A DNA stretch of 63,987 nucleotides, the filler included, from assembly GCA_964501035.1 (NCBI GenBank). It is 9 parts of 9 records of this genome, joined end to end, with 100 filler letters (N's around TTAATTAATTAA, not from the genome) between each part and the next. Parts side by side here need not be neighbours in the genome. Positions count along the whole stretch, not along the records: positions 49,082 to 55,465 come from CAZCRK010000073.1; 8 more parts are not named here. One strand, 5' to 3'. The notes under the pieces are model-generated. The model saw only the letters and a list, made by a program, of their open reading frames with translations, had not been told where the DNA came from and ran no database searches. A program made the translations under genes and the position numbers. The first letter of the stretch is position 1, and each line of letters opens with the position of its first letter. Of the stretch, positions 48,982 to 55,465 are shown piece by piece.

Positions 48982-49211
48982 NNNNNNNNNNNNNNNNNNN
49001 NNNNNNNNNNNNNNNNNNNNNNNNNTTAATTAATTAANNNNNNNNNNNNNNNNNNNNNNNNNNNNNNNNNNNNNNNNNNNNAAAATTTGTTTTTTAAGGT
49101 TTGGGTTGCTTGATAATATTCAGATGAGCTAGTTTCTTGGGACGCCATTGGGACATAATTTGTCCCATGAGACGTAAAACTGAAATACTTAACTACCCGA
49201 TAGCAACAAAC

Positions 49212-49247
49212 AAAAAAAGGGTCATTTCTCTTCGAGAAACAACCCTT
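49212..49247 (-). terminator. Rho-independent terminator after tRNA-Leu
   Basis: AAGGGTTGTTTCTC-GAA-GAGAAATGACCCTT followed by a T-run on the minus strand. Confidence 0.85.
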
Positions 49248-49249
49248 AG

Positions 49250-49331
49250 TGCCGCGAGAGGGGGTCGAACCCCCACGCCGTAAAGCACTGGTTCCTAAGA
49301 CCAGCGTGTCTACCAATTCCACCATCGCGGC
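49250..49331 (-). tRNA. tRNA-Leu (anticodon TAG), CCA not encoded
   Basis: GCCGCGA/TCGCGGC acceptor stem, D-loop GGAATTGGTAGAC, anticodon arm CTGGT-CTTAGGA-ACCAG, long variable arm, GGTTCGA T-loop. Confidence 0.97.
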
Positions 49332-49441
49332 AAAATCCCTACTGAATAGGTCGCAAAATTTAGAACAAATTTCTATTTAGAAAATATATAATTTATGGTA
49401 AAATTTTAAACTTTTGATTTTCTTGCTAACCCGTGCAAACC

Positions 49442-51346
49442 CTATTGCAAAATCCAGTTTACCACTTGCACTATGTCAAGTACATTAACAGCTCCATCAA
49501 AATTGACATCTGCAATGCTAACCTCACAATCTGTAGGGGTGGTGGTAAGTAAAATGATATTGACCATACTAACAATATCTAGTACATTTAAATATCCATC
49601 GCTGTTAATATCCCCTTGCACATCAATATTGCAATCATTTTCAAGAAGGGATGTTATAATATCAATCATCCACTGGGTATCTATTTCATTATTTGCATAT
49701 TGAATAATTCCCTGCTGGTCAATAATAAAATCTCGGGGATACGGCGAACCATCATTGGGAAGATAATACATGTCGTAGGTTTCTCCACCCTGTACACCAC
49801 CTGGACTTCCTGGGTCAAACAGAATTGGGAACGTAATATTATTTTCTTCCACAAACCCATTGATTAGATTTGAATCTGAGGTATTTATAATTCCGAGTAC
49901 TTGTGCTTCTTGATTAAACTCTTGCCAAATGGCTGTTTCTAAATCCGATAACTCCGGACTACAGACAGGTCAGAGTGGTGAGAAAAATATAAGTACAACC
50001 ACTTCATCCAAATGATCTGATAACTGGTAATATCCTGTTCCATTGGCTACAATTTCAAGATTAAAGTCTGGTGCATCATCCCCTACATTTGCGCCAATGA
50101 TATTGCCATTGGTTTCACATTTTAATAATGACTCATCTGCATCATTACTAAAAATTTGATAACTACCAGACGCATTTAATGCACCTGCTGTATAGGTTAC
50201 TTCAATCGTTTGAGATTCACCAGCAGGAATGTTAGACAACTCGGTAGTTTCAAACTCACTATTGGTAGCAAAGGCATCAGAAATTATCGCTTCAGATTGA
50301 CCATTGTTTATAACTTCAAGCGTCATGGTATAGGATTGTCCATTTTCTACAAGTGGGAAGTTGAGTTCATAGGTACTTAAATCTAAATCCGCACCCAGAA
50401 TATTTCCATATTCAAATATTTGAACCGAACCCCATTCCGCTGAATATATAAATTGATTTTTAGATGTGATTGCCATGGGGCGACGAGTTGTATTCTTGTA
50501 TCCAATCAATTCAAGTGTACTTTCATTAAGAGAGATTACTTCAATATCATCCCAATCGCTCACAACAATTTTATCATCAATTATTGTTAGCCGATTCGCT
50601 AGTGCGGATGTATTATACACATCTACAATAGTTGCATTTTCAGAATCAATCCACGCAACTCCATCTGAACCTAAAGCCACGGCTAAAAATTCAGTTCCGT
50701 TGTTATCTTGCCCAAACATAACATCTTTTAAACTGTTTGTAAACGAAACTTCTTGGACAATCGTTGGTTCGTCAAAATTGCTAATATCTACAAATAACAA
50801 ATCTTGCTCGTCTGCAATATATGCGTGAGATTCATTCATGGCCACAGCCCAAGCATTATTGGTTGCTAAAGAATGTATCAAACTTGGGTTTTCAGGTGTT
50901 GCTACATCAAAAAACAAAACGCCATCTGTATGTGCACAAACCGCTAACGTGGTATTTGAAACATCCACGTTTTCTAGAGTCAAATTATTGGTATTATTGA
51001 TATAACCTAGAAAGTTAGGATTATTTGGATTGCTAAAATCAACCATAGCAACTCCATTTTTTGCAGTAAAATATGCAATCGATTGATAGCTTGTAACACA
51101 ATTTGGTTTTGAACCTCCACCACCCCCATTATTTGGGATGTTAAAATGTGCAATATGATTTAACACTTCTGGGTTTGAGATATCATATACTTCCACACCA
51201 CCAACCATCCCAACAACAATGAGAATATCATCCATAATATGGGTATCTAAAATATGGCTTGCTTCGGGGTTGTGGAAATCGTGCAGAGTTAAATTTAGTG
51301 GAAATACAAGTGATACATATGTTAACATAGTCCAAAAATGTTTCAT
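49442..51346 (-). CDS. Putative selenoprotein (634 aa): LVIVD repeats, Ig-like domain, AhpC/TSA-redoxin with UxxC, C-terminal dockerin
   Basis: ORFs 49970-51346 and 49442-49852 are in the same frame, separated only by TGA at 49970-49972; the join reads APDFNL...VVVLIFFSPL-U-PVCSPELSDLE...ITFPILFD...PYPRDFIIDQQGII, a complete redoxin fold. Confidence 0.88.
49933..49968 (-). promoter_or_regulatory. Putative bacterial SECIS hairpin
   Basis: Immediately 3' of the UGA: CUGU/ACAG lower stem, CUG(U)A/UUAG with a bulged U, GUCCGG/UCGGAU upper stem, AGUUA loop starting 16 nt after the UGA. Confidence 0.7.
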
Positions 51347-51618
51347 TAAATCCCCATTACAAATCTATAACGAATGCGATTATGTCGTATTCCATGATGG
51401 TGTCTAAACCAGCGTTTCAACATTTTCTTTTCATGTCGTTTTAAATGTCGATGATGATTTATTACAATGACGGTATGGTCACCATCTGCATATTGATGAG
51501 ACGTAATATTTCTTCCCTTAACAAATGCTTCATCATTCGGATAATGATGATGGTGATGTGTGGTTGAACACGATGTAAAACACAATATACTCAAAAATAA
51601 AAGCAATAATTTCTTCAT
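51346..51618 (-). CDS. Small His/Arg-rich lipoprotein
   Basis: MKKLLLLFLSILCFTSC lipobox, then STTHHHHH; 15 His in 90 aa; AAGGA RBS; its stop overlaps the selenoprotein ATG (TAATG). Confidence 0.75.
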   Translation of the reverse strand: MKKLLLLFLSILCFTSCSTTHHHHHYPNDEAFVKGRNITSHQYADGDHTVIVINHHRHLKRHEKKMLKRWFRHHHGIRHNRIRYRFVMGI

Positions 51619-51666
51619 GATTTTTCCTTTCAAACTAAACTATTTGAAACGTAAACCAATTAAAAG

Positions 51667-53112
51667 TTAACTGCTAATAATAATATTAACCACTTGAATA
51701 ATGTCCAAAACATTGACAATTGAATCTCCATTCATATCAGCAGGTGGTGTTGCTTCAGCAGTTCCCATAACCATATTTACCATACTGACTACATCGAGAA
51801 TATTAATCACTTCATCACCATTGACATCACCCATTAAGAAATTCTCTTGTTCGAGATAGTCTGAAGGATATTTATGTGATCTGGCAATCATTGAAAATAA
51901 TCCTCCATTGTGTTCATAATCCCATACAATATTTCCATTTTCAGCAACTTCAAACATACGGGCTTCAGCTGCAACTGTTACAAACGTATTGCCGTTCTCT
52001 AAACGGAAAGCTCCACTCTGCATTTCTGATTCAAATCCACCTGTGTACATCCATTCCCAATTTTCTGGTCCGTAGGGTTGACCATCTTCAATAATATAGT
52101 TTCCATCTTCATCCATTGGCGGAGTAAACTCAATTAAAGCTGAGCTACTAAATGAATGTGCATTACTAAAACAAAGTAAATTTCCTTCACCAGGATATCC
52201 AGAATCTATCCAATTAATACCATGTTGGTCATTTAACAAATGGTTATTGGAATCACCTCTATCATAGTTTTGCGAATTGCCCCACCTGTATAGAAAATCA
52301 CCACCCTTTCCAGAATTTCCCCCACTATGTGATGCAGCTTCTTCGGTCGTTGTACTATGGTCAATAATATAAATCTCATCCATTGCTCGAGAAGACAATA
52401 CAATTTGATCAAGCTCTGCATTATATGAAATTGCATTAATATGAATCCAATCTGCATGCGCTCCACCTGGACCGCCCGAATTACCCACATTGCCTAAGTT
52501 AATGTTCATTAATTCGGGATGTTCAGAAATAACTCCATAATTTGGTTTAGAGGGGTCAACATCTTGTATAAGATGGTCCCATACATGCCACTCCCACACA
52601 ATATTCACATCATTAGTACCTACCATTTCCAATTCAAAAATGACTTCTCCCCACATTTGATTCAATGGGTTTCCTATATAGGTTCGACCTAAATCATATG
52701 CTTCCGAAGCTGACTTGCGTTCCCATGCAACGACCAGTAAATTCCCATTGGGAAGTGGTTCAATATCATGATGATGTTGAAAATCATTGTTAGAAATTTC
52801 ATATTCCCATAAAATATTTCCATCCCAATCCAAATAATGAAAACCACCACCTACACCACCATTTTCCATAGTTGGATTACTCACTCTGTAGGGATAAAAC
52901 ATGGTACTATCTGTCAATAAATATGCCATGCTTGCTGGTCCTCGGGAATGATCCCATGTATGCAACACATTTTCATTGGAATCCATCAATCTTGTAATTA
53001 TATCGTCATTTCCTCCTGGACCACTTGATTGCGGTGTAAATAGCACAAGTCCATCATAAATGTCCTGAGCAAATATGCTTGAAATGAATAATAATATAAT
53101 TTTAAACTTCAT
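51667..53112 (-). CDS. Aryl-sulfate sulfotransferase (ASST) family protein with C-terminal dockerin
   Basis: QHHHDIEPLPNGN, IVWEW, DWIHINAI, LSSR, NDQH motifs; dockerin GDVNGDEVINILDVV / ADMNGDSIVNVLDII; signal peptide. Confidence 0.85.
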   Translation of the reverse strand: MKFKIILLFISSIFAQDIYDGLVLFTPQSSGPGGNDDIITRLMDSNENVLHTWDHSRGPASMAYLLTDSTMFYPYRVSNPTMENGGVGGGFHYLDWDGNILWEYEISNNDFQHHHDIEPLPNGNLLVVAWERKSASEAYDLGRTYIGNPLNQMWGEVIFELEMVGTNDVNIVWEWHVWDHLIQDVDPSKPNYGVISEHPELMNINLGNVGNSGGPGGAHADWIHINAISYNAELDQIVLSSRAMDEIYIIDHSTTTEEAASHSGGNSGKGGDFLYRWGNSQNYDRGDSNNHLLNDQHGINWIDSGYPGEGNLLCFSNAHSFSSSALIEFTPPMDEDGNYIIEDGQPYGPENWEWMYTGGFESEMQSGAFRLENGNTFVTVAAEARMFEVAENGNIVWDYEHNGGLFSMIARSHKYPSDYLEQENFLMGDVNGDEVINILDVVSMVNMVMGTAEATPPADMNGDSIVNVLDIIQVVNIIISS

Positions 53113-53129
53113 TTTTCTTTCCCCTTTTA

Positions 53130-54110
53130 CTAATATCTAAATAGAAGCGAAGCAGCAGATAATCCTGCACCAGTACCTATCATTAAAATTTTATCACCTC
53201 GTTTAAATGGTTGTTTTTGATATTGCATCGTAAGTGCCATTGGGAGTGATGCAGCCACACAATTACCTGTTTGTGCAACCACATTTACTACTTTACTCTC
53301 GTCAAAACCACCATGTTTTGCATACGCTCTTACTGCCATATTGGATGCCTGATGTGGAATCACCCAATCAATATCATCATGAGATAACTTGCATTTTTCT
53401 AACATTTCTTCAATCATGACAGATACTTTTTTTCGAGCCAATTTATATACTTGAGGTCCCTTCATCGTAAATAAGTTATCTTCTAATCTCATCTTGGGTT
53501 CATGAGGAGGTAAATTCGTGCCGCCACCCCGCAATTCAGTAAGATCTGCTCCACTTGGCCATGTGTTCATTTTCCAATACAATAATTTAGAATTATCAGA
53601 TTGAGCGGGTGCTTCCACAATAACCGATGCGGAACCATCCCCCAATAATGCTGATGATTCAGGTTCATTCAGGTTGCGACCACGTGTTCCTCTATCAGAT
53701 GATACAACGAGAATGCGTTTATACACCCCATTGTGAATAAAATTGGCTGCTGTTTGGAAAGCAACAAGAAATGACAAACATGTGGTGTGAACAGTAAAAG
53801 AGGGAATGCTTTCAAATCCCAATTGTTTTTGAATGAACACAGATGTATCAGGTATCGCTTGTTTTCCAACTCCAGACGCATTGATTACTAAATCAGGTGG
53901 ACTGCCCTTACCTATTGCATCTTTGGAAGAAATTGCACCCATTTCATCTACATCAATTGTAGAAATTCTTTTTTCAAGTACACCCGTTCTGGTATTTATC
54001 CAACGTTCGGTTTTACCAATTTGAGGAGCAAGCTCAGCAGAGGTCTCAATTTTGGGGGGTAAGTATAGTCCAAAACCCGTTATTTTGATATTAAGTGGAT
54101 TGGGTAACAT
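53130..54110 (-). CDS. 3-oxoacyl-ACP synthase III (FabH-like) family protein
   Basis: Cys-His-Asn triad: HTTCLSF, VIPHQAS, TGNCVAASLP; LLGDG; GTGAGLS. Confidence 0.9.
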   Translation of the reverse strand: MLPNPLNIKITGFGLYLPPKIETSAELAPQIGKTERWINTRTGVLEKRISTIDVDEMGAISSKDAIGKGSPPDLVINASGVGKQAIPDTSVFIQKQLGFESIPSFTVHTTCLSFLVAFQTAANFIHNGVYKRILVVSSDRGTRGRNLNEPESSALLGDGSASVIVEAPAQSDNSKLLYWKMNTWPSGADLTELRGGGTNLPPHEPKMRLEDNLFTMKGPQVYKLARKKVSVMIEEMLEKCKLSHDDIDWVIPHQASNMAVRAYAKHGGFDESKVVNVVAQTGNCVAASLPMALTMQYQKQPFKRGDKILMIGTGAGLSAASLLFRY

Positions 54111-55465
54111 CAGAAGAAATACCGTAACTCAAACCGAGTATGTGAAAAATCTTCCATTGGATTAAAGGGGTACTCATTACCTAGAGAATCATCACCACTT
54201 ATTTTGCTTATTGCACTAGAGAGTTTCAAATTTTCATGAATAGTATAAATAGATTCAATTTCAGAAAAGAAACCCGATGATGACGTTAAATCAATCAAAT
54301 TTTTCCAGATGACCTCCAATTCTTTACCACTCTCATCATAAAACAATTTTTTCACATTAAACATAAGTGCTCTATTGGTAAACATTGCAATAGGAGATCC
54401 GGTACCTGGTGTAAAATAATCTTTTGGGTCGATATCAATTATAAAATCTGAGGTAAATTGATTAAAATATTCACTACCTTTAACTGATTTAATTGAATTT
54501 ATAAAATATTGAACATTAAAGTCAAAGTCATACACTGAAAACTCAAGTTGGGCGATATGTTGCATATATTTTGCAACTGTATTTAATGGTAATTGTTCGT
54601 AAATAGACACTTCACATTCACTCTCACTTACCTCAACACATACTCCATCTACCCAACCACATTCATCTTGAAAATTACATGTAAATTCTGAAGCATAAAA
54701 ACTACAGGCATCATCAATTTCATTTGGACAAAGAGTCGCAGAATCATACTCAAAATTTCGTTCTTCTAAATCTGTATCTCTAGTAGAAAAGAGAGCATTT
54801 TCAAAACGAAATGTAACTTCATCTGTCATGACCATTCCACTAAATCCAATTATTTCTGTACTTCTAAAATCTAATACTGTATCACCTTGAAAATTGGTTT
54901 GGGTTTGGTCTGACCAAATATTGACCCCTTTTAAACTAAAGGTTCTATCATGAATATTCAAATATGAGAATGTGAAATCAGAGTTATCAAACGATTTTGA
55001 TAGATAACCTCCAAATTCAAATGGTTGTGTAACTGAGTTTATAATAGGATTTCTGGGCATACCTTCAATACCATCCATGATTGGAAATTCTGAATCATTT
55101 AAGGGTACTCTGTTTGAAATATGATTGGGTAGAATAACAGCTCCAAATTTCCAATCATCAAAATATAAATCAATCGAGGCAGACAATGACCCGATTTTAC
55201 GTTTTGCCCCGGTAGTAAACAGAAAATAATAGTCATAAGCATTTACATTATCTGTTGGATTATTGCCTGTTGCATCCCCCCAAGAATGGATTTGTTTACC
55301 TAATTTTATCTCTCCAAAATTTGTGAAAATATTTAGGTAATATTCCCTAAAATCCAAAGCACCCGTTGATTTAATTCCAAACAAACTATACGTATGAATA
55401 TTTTTATAATCCCTATTGTTTAGTTCAGATACATACGCATCATAAACTCCAGGTCTAAACTCAAA
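54110..55465 (-). CDS. Outer-membrane beta-barrel protein (DUF1302-like) with a Cys-rich insertion (5' partial)
   Basis: REYYL, LGKQIHSWG..NPTDNVN, C-terminal FELRYFF beta-signal. Confidence 0.7.
   Translation of the reverse strand, partial: FEFRPGVYDAYVSELNNRDYKNIHTYSLFGIKSTGALDFREYYLNIFTNFGEIKLGKQIHSWGDATGNNPTDNVNAYDYYFLFTTGAKRKIGSLSASIDLYFDDWKFGAVILPNHISNRVPLNDSEFPIMDGIEGMPRNPIINSVTQPFEFGGYLSKSFDNSDFTFSYLNIHDRTFSLKGVNIWSDQTQTNFQGDTVLDFRSTEIIGFSGMVMTDEVTFRFENALFSTRDTDLEERNFEYDSATLCPNEIDDACSFYASEFTCNFQDECGWVDGVCVEVSESECEVSIYEQLPLNTVAKYMQHIAQLEFSVYDFDFNVQYFINSIKSVKGSEYFNQFTSDFIIDIDPKDYFTPGTGSPIAMFTNRALMFNVKKLFYDESGKELEVIWKNLIDLTSSSGFFSEIESIYTIHENLKLSSAISKISGDDSLGNEYPFNPMEDFSHTRFELRYFF

Follow-up and report, generated by a model that had tools for sequence, protein, structure and literature searches.

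A single gene that standard gene callers split probably encodes a large exported selenocysteine enzyme in a marine bacterium

The stretch of DNA analyzed here (the window; 63,987 nucleotides, filler included, from assembly GCA_964501035.1) contains a 458-aa and a 136-aa open reading frame (ORF) on its minus strand. These ORFs raise the question of whether they are two genes or one gene in which a UGA codon is read as selenocysteine (Sec, U). The evidence largely supports the second answer, in which both ORFs belong to a single gene whose product is a large exported enzyme with selenocysteine, and standard gene callers divide it. A probability of roughly 0.8 was given to this reading as a whole, namely, one exported 634-residue selenoprotein with SECIS-dependent decoding, surface anchoring, and thiol-disulfide chemistry.

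One reading frame with a conserved UGA codon

The minus strand from 51346 to 49445 forms a single frame of 634 codons, in which the sole TGA is codon 459 at 49972-49970 (Table 1). The 458-aa ORF runs to this TGA from an ATG at 51346, which overlaps the TAA of a 95-aa ORF upstream, and the frame beyond the TGA is open to the TAG at 49444-49442. The 136-aa ORF is just the portion from the first possible start (GTG 49852), 39 sense codons 3' of the TGA. The layout claimed in the initial annotation, with both ORFs in one frame and one TGA between them, was thus confirmed. With the TGA read as U, a product of 634 residues is obtained in which U459 is the only departure from translation table 11, and the surrounding residues are FFSPL-U-PVC-SPELSD (FFSPL-U-PVCSPELSDLETAIWQEFNQEAQ).

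Table 1. Features of the selenoredoxin gene, with positions counted along the window
Feature	Position	Strand	Basis or detail
Whole gene	49442..51346	-	634 codons plus TAG stop (49444-49442); full-length one-TGA matches in relatives
Likely Sec-type signal peptide, about residues 1-17	51296..51346	-	Orthologue N-termini; helix 2-12 in model
LVIVD-repeat beta-propeller, residues 18-314	50405..51295	-	Pfam LVIVD; all-beta blades, model pLDDT mostly >90
Ig-like beta-sandwich, residues 320-416	50099..50389	-	Pfam HYDIN_VesB_CFA65-like_Ig above cut-off; model
TlpA/ResA-like redoxin, residues 421-570	49637..50086	-	Pfam AhpC-TSA and Redoxin; PDB sequence matches
Sec codon UGA, codon 459	49970..49972	-	Frame translation, homologue conservation, contigs from other studies
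Cys462 codon, resolving residue of UxxC	49961..49963	-	Invariant alignment column; Cys in 81/81 distinct sequences
SECIS hairpin	49944..49958	-	5' arm UCCGG 49958-49954, loop AGUUA 49953-49949, 3' arm UCGGA 49948-49944
PYPRDFIID, residues 535-543	49718..49744	-	S534, P535, P537, R538, D539 invariant
Type I dockerin, residues 578-634	49445..49615	-	Pfam Dockerin_1; three helices in model

The Pfam family AhpC-TSA matched residues 421 to 550 (E = 9.3e-18; 64.8 bits, cut-off 26; profile positions 1 to 123 of 124), and the domain therefore spans the TGA. Redoxin (PF08534) also passed its gathering cut-off, over residues 421 to 557 (50.3 bits, cut-off 26.6). Chance would not be expected to give matches of this kind across the codon. 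The UGA accordingly falls, as had been proposed, at the first position of a UxxC motif within the AhpC-TSA/Redoxin domain, with U459-P-V-C462 as the active site. The PYPRDFIID motif expected downstream of it was located at residues 535 to 543, which we take to be the cis-Pro loop position of thioredoxin-fold proteins.

Long matches in related genomes (37 to 80% identity) carried exactly one TGA at the same motif in 25 of 25 cases, in 23 of the 41 genomes of the order. Among public genomes, mostly Neomarinimicrobiota/Marinimicrobia/Fidelibacterota, TGA was present at the same site in 79 of 80 loci; the 25-match and 80-locus sets overlap, and their genomes are kin. The single exception (L078) had TGC (Cys) plus a stem-breaking change of CCG to CAG and was 97.6% identical over 1100 nt to a TGA-bearing locus (L063). 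Neither TAA nor TAG was found at the codon-459 position among the homologues examined, and none of these was split there into two separate genes by such stops. No full-architecture Cys homologue was found as a single stretch among the best 150 representatives (all at least 329 bits). Sec appears to be near-obligate in the propeller-Ig-redoxin family, with Cys forms at 1 of 80 loci. Contigs of three other studies spanned the TGA with 0, 9, and 17 differences elsewhere and zero at the codon, so that the variation at 49970-49972 for which a check had been suggested was not seen in them. From a run labelled metatranscriptomic, which is flagged "probably DNA," only a pair of incomplete contigs was obtained, and adapter sequence stood at the ends of one of them.

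In this genome generally, TGA works as a normal stop and terminates 214 of the 1056 long ORFs; the in-frame extension past it is short in most of them. Four of these 214 ORFs (at least 200 aa) had an in-frame extension of more than 100 codons, the selenoredoxin gene among them. A sequencing or assembly error, a pseudogene mark, or a Trp or Gly codon under a reassigned code would also present as a bare stop codon, and the G+C content of the genome is low (0.338), as in some code-4 and code-25 lineages. Such explanations have a negligible probability, given this ordinary use of TGA, its recurrence across the public loci and in the contigs of the three other studies, and the alignment of Cys with this residue in solved relatives and in L078.

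SECIS hairpin and selenocysteine machinery

The legend to Fig. 2 of PMC13188914 gives, for bacterial SECIS elements, a loop of 3 to 9 nt, an upper stem of 4 to 16 bp, a G in the first two loop positions, a UGA-to-loop distance of 16 to 37 nt, and an MFE of at most -7.5 kcal/mol. The hairpin downstream of UGA459 fell within all four published criteria, with a 5-nt loop, a 5-bp stem, and a G at loop position 2 followed by U; the UGA-to-loop spacing was 16 nt, and the MFE was -10.3 kcal/mol (45 nt) or -13.1 kcal/mol (60 nt). Third-position entropy across 81 distinct sequences was 1.93 bits at Pro+1 and 1.95 bits at Val+2 and was 0 at Pro+5 (CCG, 81/81), Glu+6 (GAG, 81/81), and Ser+8 (NCG, 81/81). 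Stem pairs 16-28, 17-27, and 18-26 were intact in 81/81 sequences, and the closing pair was G.U in all but two sequences, which are kin and have C-G instead; this compensatory change is limited to the one pair and to 2/81 sequences. The case for a SECIS element rests on conservation and not on energy, since the fold of an 86-nt segment was no more stable than its shuffles (z = -0.58; 56 of 200 shuffles as stable or more). The frozen synonymous sites support the interpretation that the hairpin acts as a bacterial SECIS element.

These data also bear on whether UGA459 simply terminates translation, which would leave a 458-aa propeller-Ig product and a remainder that is untranslated or made from GTG 49852. 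Termination is how gene callers read the locus; the selenoredoxin family is present in public protein sets only as pieces of 443 to 485 aa that stop at the TGA, as expected from the claim that gene callers split the gene. Partial termination at Sec codons is, moreover, normal. Termination would, however, break up a folded domain right at the catalytic motif. The alignment also shows protein-level conservation of the codons that separate the TGA from GTG 49852, and a dockerin or T9SS tail is in frame in every complete locus. Together with the frozen hairpin and the L063/L078 pair of TGA and TGC loci, this makes termination very improbable. Because the family is cut in two, surveys relying on such gene calls miss its active site and sorting signal.

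The four Sec genes that the initial annotation had suggested seeking were all present, with profile matches over curated cut-offs for selD (378.8 bits), selA (523.1 bits), selB (375.2 bits), and tRNA-Sec (selC; 65.8 bits). The selD gene itself contained one TGA, and selA passed its cut-off in 36 of the 41 relatives, including all 21 of high quality. Eleven other selenoprotein candidates were found in the genome, with a hairpin beginning about 7 to 17 nt past the UGA. The scan used a six-frame margin filter (a coding-potential filter, which ranked antisense frames highest, was dropped), and 18 candidates were passed to Pfam, of which 7 were set aside. Those rejected included four cases of upstream read-through or in-frame neighbours (sigma/anti-sigma pair L141, AlgH-like L147, RuvB L150, and PFOR L151), two candidates that matched no family (L144 and L148), and one with only a hexapeptide repeat 3' of the TGA (L140). 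Contig C15 carried a giant frame of 646 + 2146 aa.

Domain architecture and predicted surface location

The order LVIVD-Ig-redoxin(UxxC)-dockerin, as initially proposed, was confirmed by Pfam and by the predicted structure. LVIVD (PF08309) matched residues 164 to 199 (27.4 bits, cut-off 20.2) within a region of consecutive four-strand blades across residues 18 to 314, and a Foldseek search with the whole model returned matches only to generic 7/8-bladed, WD40-type propellers. One face of the propeller, bearing SDWDD and AEW, is conserved. The Ig-like HYDIN/VesB family matched residues 320 to 390 (27.1 bits, cut-off 25.5); CARDB and DUF1573 (Pfam) and choice_anch_D (NCBIfam) were all below cut-off for this domain. 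The best PDB sequence matches of the redoxin domain were 2ls5, 4pq1, and ResA (3c71/1st9), whose CxxC aligns on the UxxC. Dockerin_1 (PF00404) matched residues 578 to 632 (36.2 bits, cut-off 22.9), with two Ca-binding repeats, DINSDGYLNVLD and DVNFDGAVNVLD, legible in the sequence as a duplicated D-x-N-x-D-G-x-x-N-x-x-D. In the alignment, orthologue N-termini consisted of MKK or MRR and a hydrophobic run, followed by a conserved LNLTL.

None of the 8 NCBIfam matches listed for the 634-aa protein was over its cut-off, and the protein accordingly matched no NCBIfam-curated selenoprotein family at that level. Another protein of the genome, on contig C8, joins a Sec redoxin to a dockerin and a choice-of-anchor domain; it passed NF053656 (TUGYCR-motif redoxin; 135 bits, cut-off 100), and the C-terminal part of NF045500 (Omp28-related selenoprotein) matched dockerin-like ends on other proteins of the genome. 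Exported dockerin-bearing selenoproteins are, by these matches, already in the curated library. The architecture had been described as unrecognised; this held for the propeller-Ig-redoxin core, which matched no NCBIfam model over cut-off, and not for the dockerin-like ends, which have precedent on selenoproteins (NF045500).

Among 75 C-terminal tails, 30 had a dockerin, 33 had a T9SS sorting domain, and 12 had neither, with the sorting domain taking the place of the dockerin in other clades. In a quick tree of 66 core sequences, the C-terminal types grouped by clade, with several swaps. The genome contained 4 cohesin matches over cut-off (with cohesins on contigs C29, C52, and C9), including a 251-aa protein in which a cohesin is fused to a T9SS sorting domain and a cohesin+LRR+dockerin adaptor, and it contained 34 T9SS sorting domains and SprA over cut-off. 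The predicted complex of cohesin and dockerin scored 0.38 (best control, 0.02), with runs sharing at least 95% of contacts and a partner pLDDT of at least 84. The mark applied was passed by 116 of 157 solved complexes and by 2 of 215 mismatches, and passes at scores of 0.60 or lower came from only 18 of the 157 solved complexes and from both passing mismatches. The pass may also reflect memorisation by the prediction method, since cohesin-dockerin complexes have already been solved. The dockerin of the selenoredoxin may thus pair with a cohesin of the same genome, as the prediction faintly suggests. Of the scaffold-docked arrangement claimed initially, the cohesin genes of the same genome stood and the complex itself was predicted only weakly.

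Proposed chemistry and comparison with known systems

From these features, we infer Sec insertion, a surface location, thiol-disulfide chemistry, and a role for the propeller. UGA459 would be decoded as selenocysteine via the hairpin 16 nt downstream, which would recruit SelB with Sec-tRNA(Sec) supplied by the selA, selB, selC, and selD genes of the genome. The signal peptide would carry the protein across the inner membrane, and the mature protein would comprise the LVIVD propeller, an Ig-like spacer, a TlpA/ResA-like thioredoxin-fold domain, and the C-terminal dockerin. The dockerin most likely anchors the enzyme on cohesin-bearing proteins of the same cell, among which the 251-aa cohesin protein with its T9SS domain would put it on the cell surface. 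The corresponding core of other clades bears a T9SS sorting domain of its own. The dockerin forms are without a T9SS signal for passage across the outer membrane. The selenolate of U459, at the N-terminal, attacking position of a CxxC-type motif, would attack a substrate disulfide or other oxidised sulfur, and Cys462 would resolve the mixed intermediate to give an internal Se-S bond, with the propeller as a putative platform for substrate recognition. TlpA-type proteins are usually re-reduced by CcdA/DsbD in the periplasm, and we know of no reductant outside the inner membrane.

The same selenoprotein might instead be a cell-surface peroxidase, in which peroxide oxidises U459 to a selenenic acid that Cys462 resolves. 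GPx-type enzymes use Sec as their peroxidatic residue, the top Pfam family is AhpC-TSA, and weaker PDB matches included the peroxiredoxin-like AhpE Rv2238c and 2ywn; the class is also filed as "Prx-like" in the tables of PMC2398784 and PMC13188914. Peroxidase activity was nevertheless considered unlikely. The peroxiredoxin signature (PxxxT/SxxC) was not kept (of 81 sequences, 49 had Ala and 16 had Ser three residues before U), U occupies the first and not the second position of UxxC, and the best PDB sequence matches were TlpA-like proteins and ResA. The residue before U was W in deep clades and P, L, N, M, or G elsewhere (x-U-P-V-C), with S-P-Y-P-R-D invariant where expected, and the deep-clade pattern F-F-A-[ST]-W-U-P-V-C-A-P-E is the WCxxC pattern of TlpA and ResA.

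Gene neighbourhoods provided no consistent functional clue, since recurrent neighbours were all clade-specific among the 80 and 104 loci compared. An ASST-like gene was upstream in 17 of 104 loci (at least 52% identity; two overlapping sets) and in 9 of 80 by clustering, which also returned sulfotransferase (8/80) and DUF3179 (10/80) neighbours; the first neighbour cluster had been joined through sorting domains that its members have in common. Directly downstream in 6 of 80 loci was a TlpA-like redoxin of the Cys type that carries a T9SS domain. An ASST/DsbL-like functional link was weighed and not taken up. Sec/Cys pairs bind soft metals, and the 95-aa ORF overlapping the start codon in this genome encodes a His-rich lipoprotein whose homologues adjoin the gene in 6 of 104 loci (two overlapping sets), so that UxxC could bind or carry a soft metal, a metalloid, or a sulfur or selenium species in place of thiol-disulfide catalysis. 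This function is improbable: the His-rich neighbour is not conserved family-wide, no metal-handling family was among the recurrent neighbours, and the oxidoreductase features of the thioredoxin fold are retained.

At least four surface selenoenzyme candidates were found in the genome: the selenoredoxin; a thioredoxin-like protein with a dockerin-like region and a T9SS domain (C27); a beta-helix-CPNU-dockerin protein (C10); and the C8 protein, with a dockerin and a TUGYCR-motif redoxin. It is tentatively suggested, as possible more than probable, that Marinimicrobia display a set of selenoenzymes on their surface as an extracellular selenium-based redox system, anchored by T9SS directly or via dockerins on T9SS-anchored cohesins. 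Such a set could act on marine particles by opening organic sulfur or proteins linked by disulfides, or it could clear oxidants, and Sec would then be kept because over-oxidised Cys is beyond repair outside the cell. Dockerin cargo might, in this scheme, pass through the T9SS while bound to its cohesin.

The dark ocean and oxygen-minimum zones are rich in Marinimicrobia (SAR406), of which hardly any have been brought into culture. In the library searched, no paper was found that joined selenoproteins with LVIVD or Marinimicrobia with dockerins; searches on selenoproteins in Marinimicrobia/SAR406 returned none on this protein, though supplements on selenoproteomes could list the family, and nothing on topic, judged by titles, was found for selenocysteine with dockerin or with T9SS. 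If the assignment is true, a selenoprotein that is T9SS cargo or cohesin docked would place selenium chemistry outside the bacterial cell and link trace selenium supply to particle processing or oxidant resistance. The scarce Cys forms and the recent hairpin-breaking Sec-to-Cys switch offer a natural pair for asking why Sec is kept, and cohesin-dockerin display through T9SS anchors would by itself be notable in a marine bacterium with a small genome.

What is new here is the architecture, the predicted export, and the near-obligate Sec; the class of selenoprotein to which the redoxin is assigned was already known. The earlier statement that UxxC redoxins are a recognised class of marine selenoproteins is borne out by the GOS table of PMC2398784 ("Prx-like 1," 225 sequences), and the review table of 2026 lists Prx-like thiol:disulfide oxidoreductases as "predicted with high confidence" (PMC13188914). 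The selenoredoxin shares with this class the Pfam domain PF00578 and a UxxC with Sec at the first position. In those tables the class is listed by the redoxin domain alone, whereas here the redoxin comes third in a predicted exported protein of 634 aa, after a propeller and an Ig domain and before a surface-anchoring end, and Cys and Sec forms number 2,740 and 225 in the GOS table, in contrast to a single Cys form at 80 loci here (PMC2398784). None of the fusions in section 9 and the Figure S1 legend of PMC2398784 resembles propeller-Ig-redoxin-dockerin.

With TlpA, ResA, and CcmG (DsbE), the selenoredoxin shares the thioredoxin fold and, by prediction, action outside the cytoplasm. Its deep clades have a motif of the WCxxC type, and a P-x-x-F-I-I-D loop falls where the cis-Pro would be expected. 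It differs from them in having Sec for Cys, no N-terminal membrane anchor, a propeller fusion, and a dockerin or T9SS end. Scores for the corresponding NCBIfam models were below cut-off (ResA, 33.5 [170]; StoA, 18.6 [210]; DsbE, 16.6 [359]), so the protein probably works like TlpA/ResA/DsbE, yet it is not filed within those equivalogs. The NF053656 and NF045500 selenoproteins have similar dockerin-type ends, but the propeller-Ig-redoxin core is a separate family. The type I dockerin with two Ca-binding repeats, and the cohesin modules in the genome, recall the cohesin-dockerin system of cellulosomes. Unlike in cellulosomes, the cargo is a redox enzyme and not a glycoside hydrolase, the anchor is T9SS and not an SLH domain or sortase signal, binding is predicted only weakly, and the bacterium, marine and diderm, has a small genome. 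A thioredoxin-like domain is combined with a beta-propeller in NHLRC2-type proteins and with Msr domains in PilB/MsrAB; in these proteins, as in the selenoredoxin, a redoxin shares its polypeptide with a propeller or a catalytic partner, and the domain order and repeat type differ.

Selenocysteine codon and its conservation

Translation of the minus-strand frame from its ATG through an in-frame TGA to a TAG gave 634 residues, with selenocysteine (Sec) at residue 459 (U459) as the sole departure from translation table 11. The context of U459 is FFSPL-U-PVC-SPELSD, and because the AhpC-TSA and Redoxin matches both extend across codon 459, the TGA lies inside the domain. The initial annotation had described two ORFs in one frame, separated by a single TGA at a UxxC motif in the middle of a redoxin, and the ORF layout and Pfam searches bore this out in all details. 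The structure model (AlphaFold2, 24 family members) had a mean pLDDT of 85.1 and a pTM of 0.69.

Features of the selenoprotein gene, its surroundings in the window, and related loci of the source genome (G000; C, contig; L, extracted locus)
Feature	Location	Basis or remark
Contig C73	window 49082-55465	carries selenoprotein gene
Selenoprotein gene	window 49442-51346 (-)	634 residues
458-aa ORF	ATG 51346 to TGA 49972-49970 (-)	TGA is codon 459
Terminal TAG	window 49444-49442 (-)	frame open from TGA to here
Propeller	residues 18-314	AlphaFold2, all beta
LVIVD repeat (one)	residues 164-199	Pfam
Ig-like domain	residues 320-390	Pfam
Beta-sandwich	residues 320-416	AlphaFold2
AhpC-TSA	residues 421-550	Pfam, E 9.3e-18
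Redoxin	residues 421-557	Pfam
Thioredoxin fold	residues 421-570	AlphaFold2, alpha/beta
Dockerin_1	residues 578-632	Pfam
Dockerin helices (three)	C-terminal to thioredoxin fold	AlphaFold2
Stretch matched in run X3	window 49923-49972	Sec codon and hairpin
tRNA-Leu	window 49249-49331 (-)	110 nt downstream of gene
His-rich ORF	window 51346-51633 (-)	95 aa; TAA overlaps selenoprotein ATG
ASST-like propeller	window 51667-53112 (-)	481 aa, own dockerin; directly upstream of gene
C27 tandem pair	G000:C27:1897-3447 and C27:369-1862	both with T9SS sorting domain
C10 exported candidate	G000:C10:3577-4479	beta-helix (NosD-like), CPN-U, dockerin
Giant frame	G000:C15:5561-13939 (-)	646 + 2146 aa, one TGA, Cys-rich context
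Two cohesin modules	G000:C9:623-1375	within frame of at least 2192 aa
Cohesin-T9SS protein	G000:C29:10180-10935 (L122:1408-2163)	251 aa; signal peptide, cohesin, type A sorting domain
Cohesin-LRR-dockerin protein	G000:C52 (L124:1375-2994)	539 aa

The source genome (1.87 Mb, 95.7% complete) contained all four components of the Sec machinery for which a search had been proposed, each above its curated cut-off: selA (523.1 bits), the adjoining selB (375.2 bits), selD (378.8 bits), whose own ORF holds one in-frame TGA, and tRNA-Sec (65.8 bits). Among the 41 genomes of the order, 36 had selA above the cut-off, including all 21 with ≥90% completeness and ≤5% contamination. TGA is not reassigned in this genome: it terminated 214 of 1056 ORFs of at least 200 aa, nearly all of them with short in-frame extensions.

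Searches of 41 genomes (the source genome and 40 relatives) recovered 25 long matches in 23 genomes (37 to 80% identity), each with exactly one TGA, located in all 25 at FF[SA]xx-U-PVC[SAN]PE[LF]SD. A scan of public collections, with one genome per species, found 120 relatives; the best 80 of these, mostly Candidatus Neomarinimicrobiota, Marinimicrobia, or Fidelibacterota by record titles, carried TGA in 79 cases and TGC in one. These counts are not independent, because the sets partly coincide and the genomes are related to one another; 81 distinct 90-nt sequences around the Sec codon were obtained. The expectation that homologues would carry TGA or Cys at this site thus held throughout. The single TGC form (L078) was 97.6% identical to a TGA-bearing locus (L063) across 1100 nt, and their 26 differences included TGA to TGC and CCG to CAG, the latter breaking the stem of the Sec insertion hairpin. 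Contigs of three other studies spanned the codon with 0, 9, and 17 differences elsewhere and zero at 49970-49972, so independent sequence left the codon unchanged. The selenoprotein gene is real, conserved, and mis-annotated.

Sec insertion hairpin

Downstream of the UGA, the consensus was CCN GUN UGY AGU CCG GAG UUR UCG GAY. Among the 81 sequences, all four bases were used at the third positions of Pro+1 and Val+2 (entropy of 1.93 and 1.95 bits), and Pro+5 (CCG), Glu+6 (GAG), and Ser+8 (NCG) were fixed in 81/81; the G+C content of the source genome was 33.8%. Because these frozen sites are synonymous, amino acid conservation cannot be the cause. The frozen bases pair as UCCGG-AGUUA-UCGGA, with three pairs present in 81/81 and U-A in 79/81; the stem is closed by G.U in 79 sequences, and the other 2 have C-G through a double change, which replaces two amino acids as well.

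The consensus bacterial Sec insertion (bSECIS) model, as given in the legend to Fig. 2 of PMC13188914, specifies a loop of 3 to 9 nt with G among its first two positions, an upper stem of 4 to 16 bp, a UGA-to-loop distance of 16 to 37 nt, and a minimum free energy of ≤-7.5 kcal/mol. The hairpin had a 5-nt loop (A-G-U start), a 5-bp stem, a spacing of 16 nt, and energies of -10.3 kcal/mol (45 nt) and -13.1 kcal/mol (60 nt). Two points weigh against it: its size is small, and folding 86 nt around it gave a structure no better than shuffles (z = -0.58). Hairpins in the 11 other selenoprotein candidates of the genome began ~7 to 17 nt past the UGA. The mechanism of UGA459 decoding was well supported. 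Six short contigs from a seawater sequencing run (X3) matched over only the ~50 nt that include the Sec codon and hairpin, with divergent sequence on either side, which fits nucleotide-level conservation of this stretch among co-occurring relatives.

Export, anchoring, and gene neighborhood

Family N termini began with MKK or MRR followed by a hydrophobic run. Of 80 C-terminal tails, 5 were incomplete and excluded; among the remaining 75, Dockerin_1 was found on 30 and a type IX secretion system (T9SS) sorting domain on 33 (32 Por_Secre_tail and 1 CHU_C/FlgD_ig). The other 12 comprised L095, dockerin-like by eye, and 11 (L065 to L070, L072, L079, L080, L087, and L091) with a common GWNLISG...PGNGYW module. 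In one clade, this C-terminal module of ~85 aa stood in place of the dockerin or T9SS domain; it matched no Pfam or NCBIfam family. The exchange of dockerin and T9SS signals on the same core argues for a cell-surface destination, a location that was moderately supported. The source genome encoded 34 sorting domains and SprA above the cut-offs, along with a PorU-like match under its cut-off (308.8 versus 420).

Four cohesin matches were above the cut-off, two in the C9 frame and one each in the 251-aa and C52 proteins. The 251-aa cohesin-T9SS protein is a candidate for anchoring this genome's many dockerin proteins at the surface, and the C52 and C9 proteins suggest that cohesins and dockerins form a multitier system in this marine genome of 1.9 Mb. 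Complex prediction for the cohesin of the 251-aa protein and the selenoprotein dockerin scored 0.38 against 0.02 for the best control (at least 95% of contacts agreeing between runs; partner pLDDT of at least 84). The mark was reached by 116/157 solved complexes and 2/215 mismatches, with only 18/157 solved complexes, and both of those mismatches, reaching it at scores of ≤0.60. The modeled pairing is tentatively suggested, and because this is a textbook pair, the pass may reflect solved complexes already learned by the predictor.

Neighbors of the selenoprotein gene varied by clade. The adjacent 95-aa ORF, lipoprotein-like with a signal peptide, Cys, HHHHH, and several HH/HHH runs, matched no Pfam or NCBIfam family, and its homologues adjoined the selenoprotein gene in only 6/104 loci. 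Adjacency of the arylsulfotransferase (ASST)-like gene was confined to the nearest clade; a PAPS-type sulfotransferase lay farther upstream in 8/80 loci. In one clade (L082, L083, L097, L098, L109, and L116), the gene that begins directly where the selenoprotein gene ends encodes a TlpA-like redoxin of the Cys type (WCTNCQ), which carries a T9SS sorting domain and could be a redox partner. A 99-aa ORF over the tRNA-Leu was rejected as spurious. As the window concatenates nine contig pieces (spacers of 44 N, 12 nt, and 44 N within 9188-61906; one further 100-N gap inside C70), features are not to be read across joins.

Redoxin type and relation to known selenoproteins

A scan of the source genome, with Pfam and NCBIfam checks and candidates counted if the family spanned or abutted U, gave 12 selenoprotein candidates including the protein studied. 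The others were SelD, a thioredoxin-TPR lipoprotein, HesB-like, GrdB/PrdB-like, glutaredoxin, Prx (TPGU), ArsC, and SelW-like proteins, and exported candidates on C27 (thioredoxin-like ATW-U-GPC, dockerin-like region, and T9SS domain), C10, and C8 (choice-of-anchor R, dockerin, and TUGYCR-motif redoxin; 135 bits against NF053656, cut-off 100). No curated selenoprotein model passed for the C10 candidate; 34 of 36 family matches in relatives held one TGA, and the remaining two were fragments ending before the site. The C27 family included many TGA forms with adjoining Cys paralogues: the Sec form, with one TGA, stood in tandem with a 77%-identical paralogue without TGA, and relatives had up to 11 matches in a single genome.

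The best sequence matches among solved structures were TlpA-like (2ls5 and 4pq1) and ResA, whose CxxC aligned with the UxxC, and deep clades showed FFA[ST]W-U-PVC-APEF, a WCxxC pattern. The peroxiredoxin T/S at -3 from U was not conserved (81 sequences). These features suggest a TlpA/ResA-like thiol-disulfide oxidoreductase, although one outside those equivalogs, as scores against the NCBIfam ResA, DsbE, and StoA models were far under the cut-offs.

Among 1.84 billion representative proteins, public pieces of the family were 443 to 485 aa long and ended at profile position 456/457, and the best 150 matches included no full-length single-stretch protein. No NCBIfam model passed for the selenoprotein, and nothing on a selenoprotein of this architecture was found in the paper library searched. 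The redoxin class and marine UxxC selenoproteins are already known: the protein falls within the Prx-like thiol:disulfide oxidoreductases (PF00578, UxxC) as tabulated in PMC13188914 and in Table 2 and section 9 of PMC2398784, and an NCBIfam model already implies dockerin-like ends on selenoproteins. The novelty lies in the family itself, which joins a propeller-Ig-redoxin core, T9SS or cohesin-dockerin export, and near-obligate Sec.
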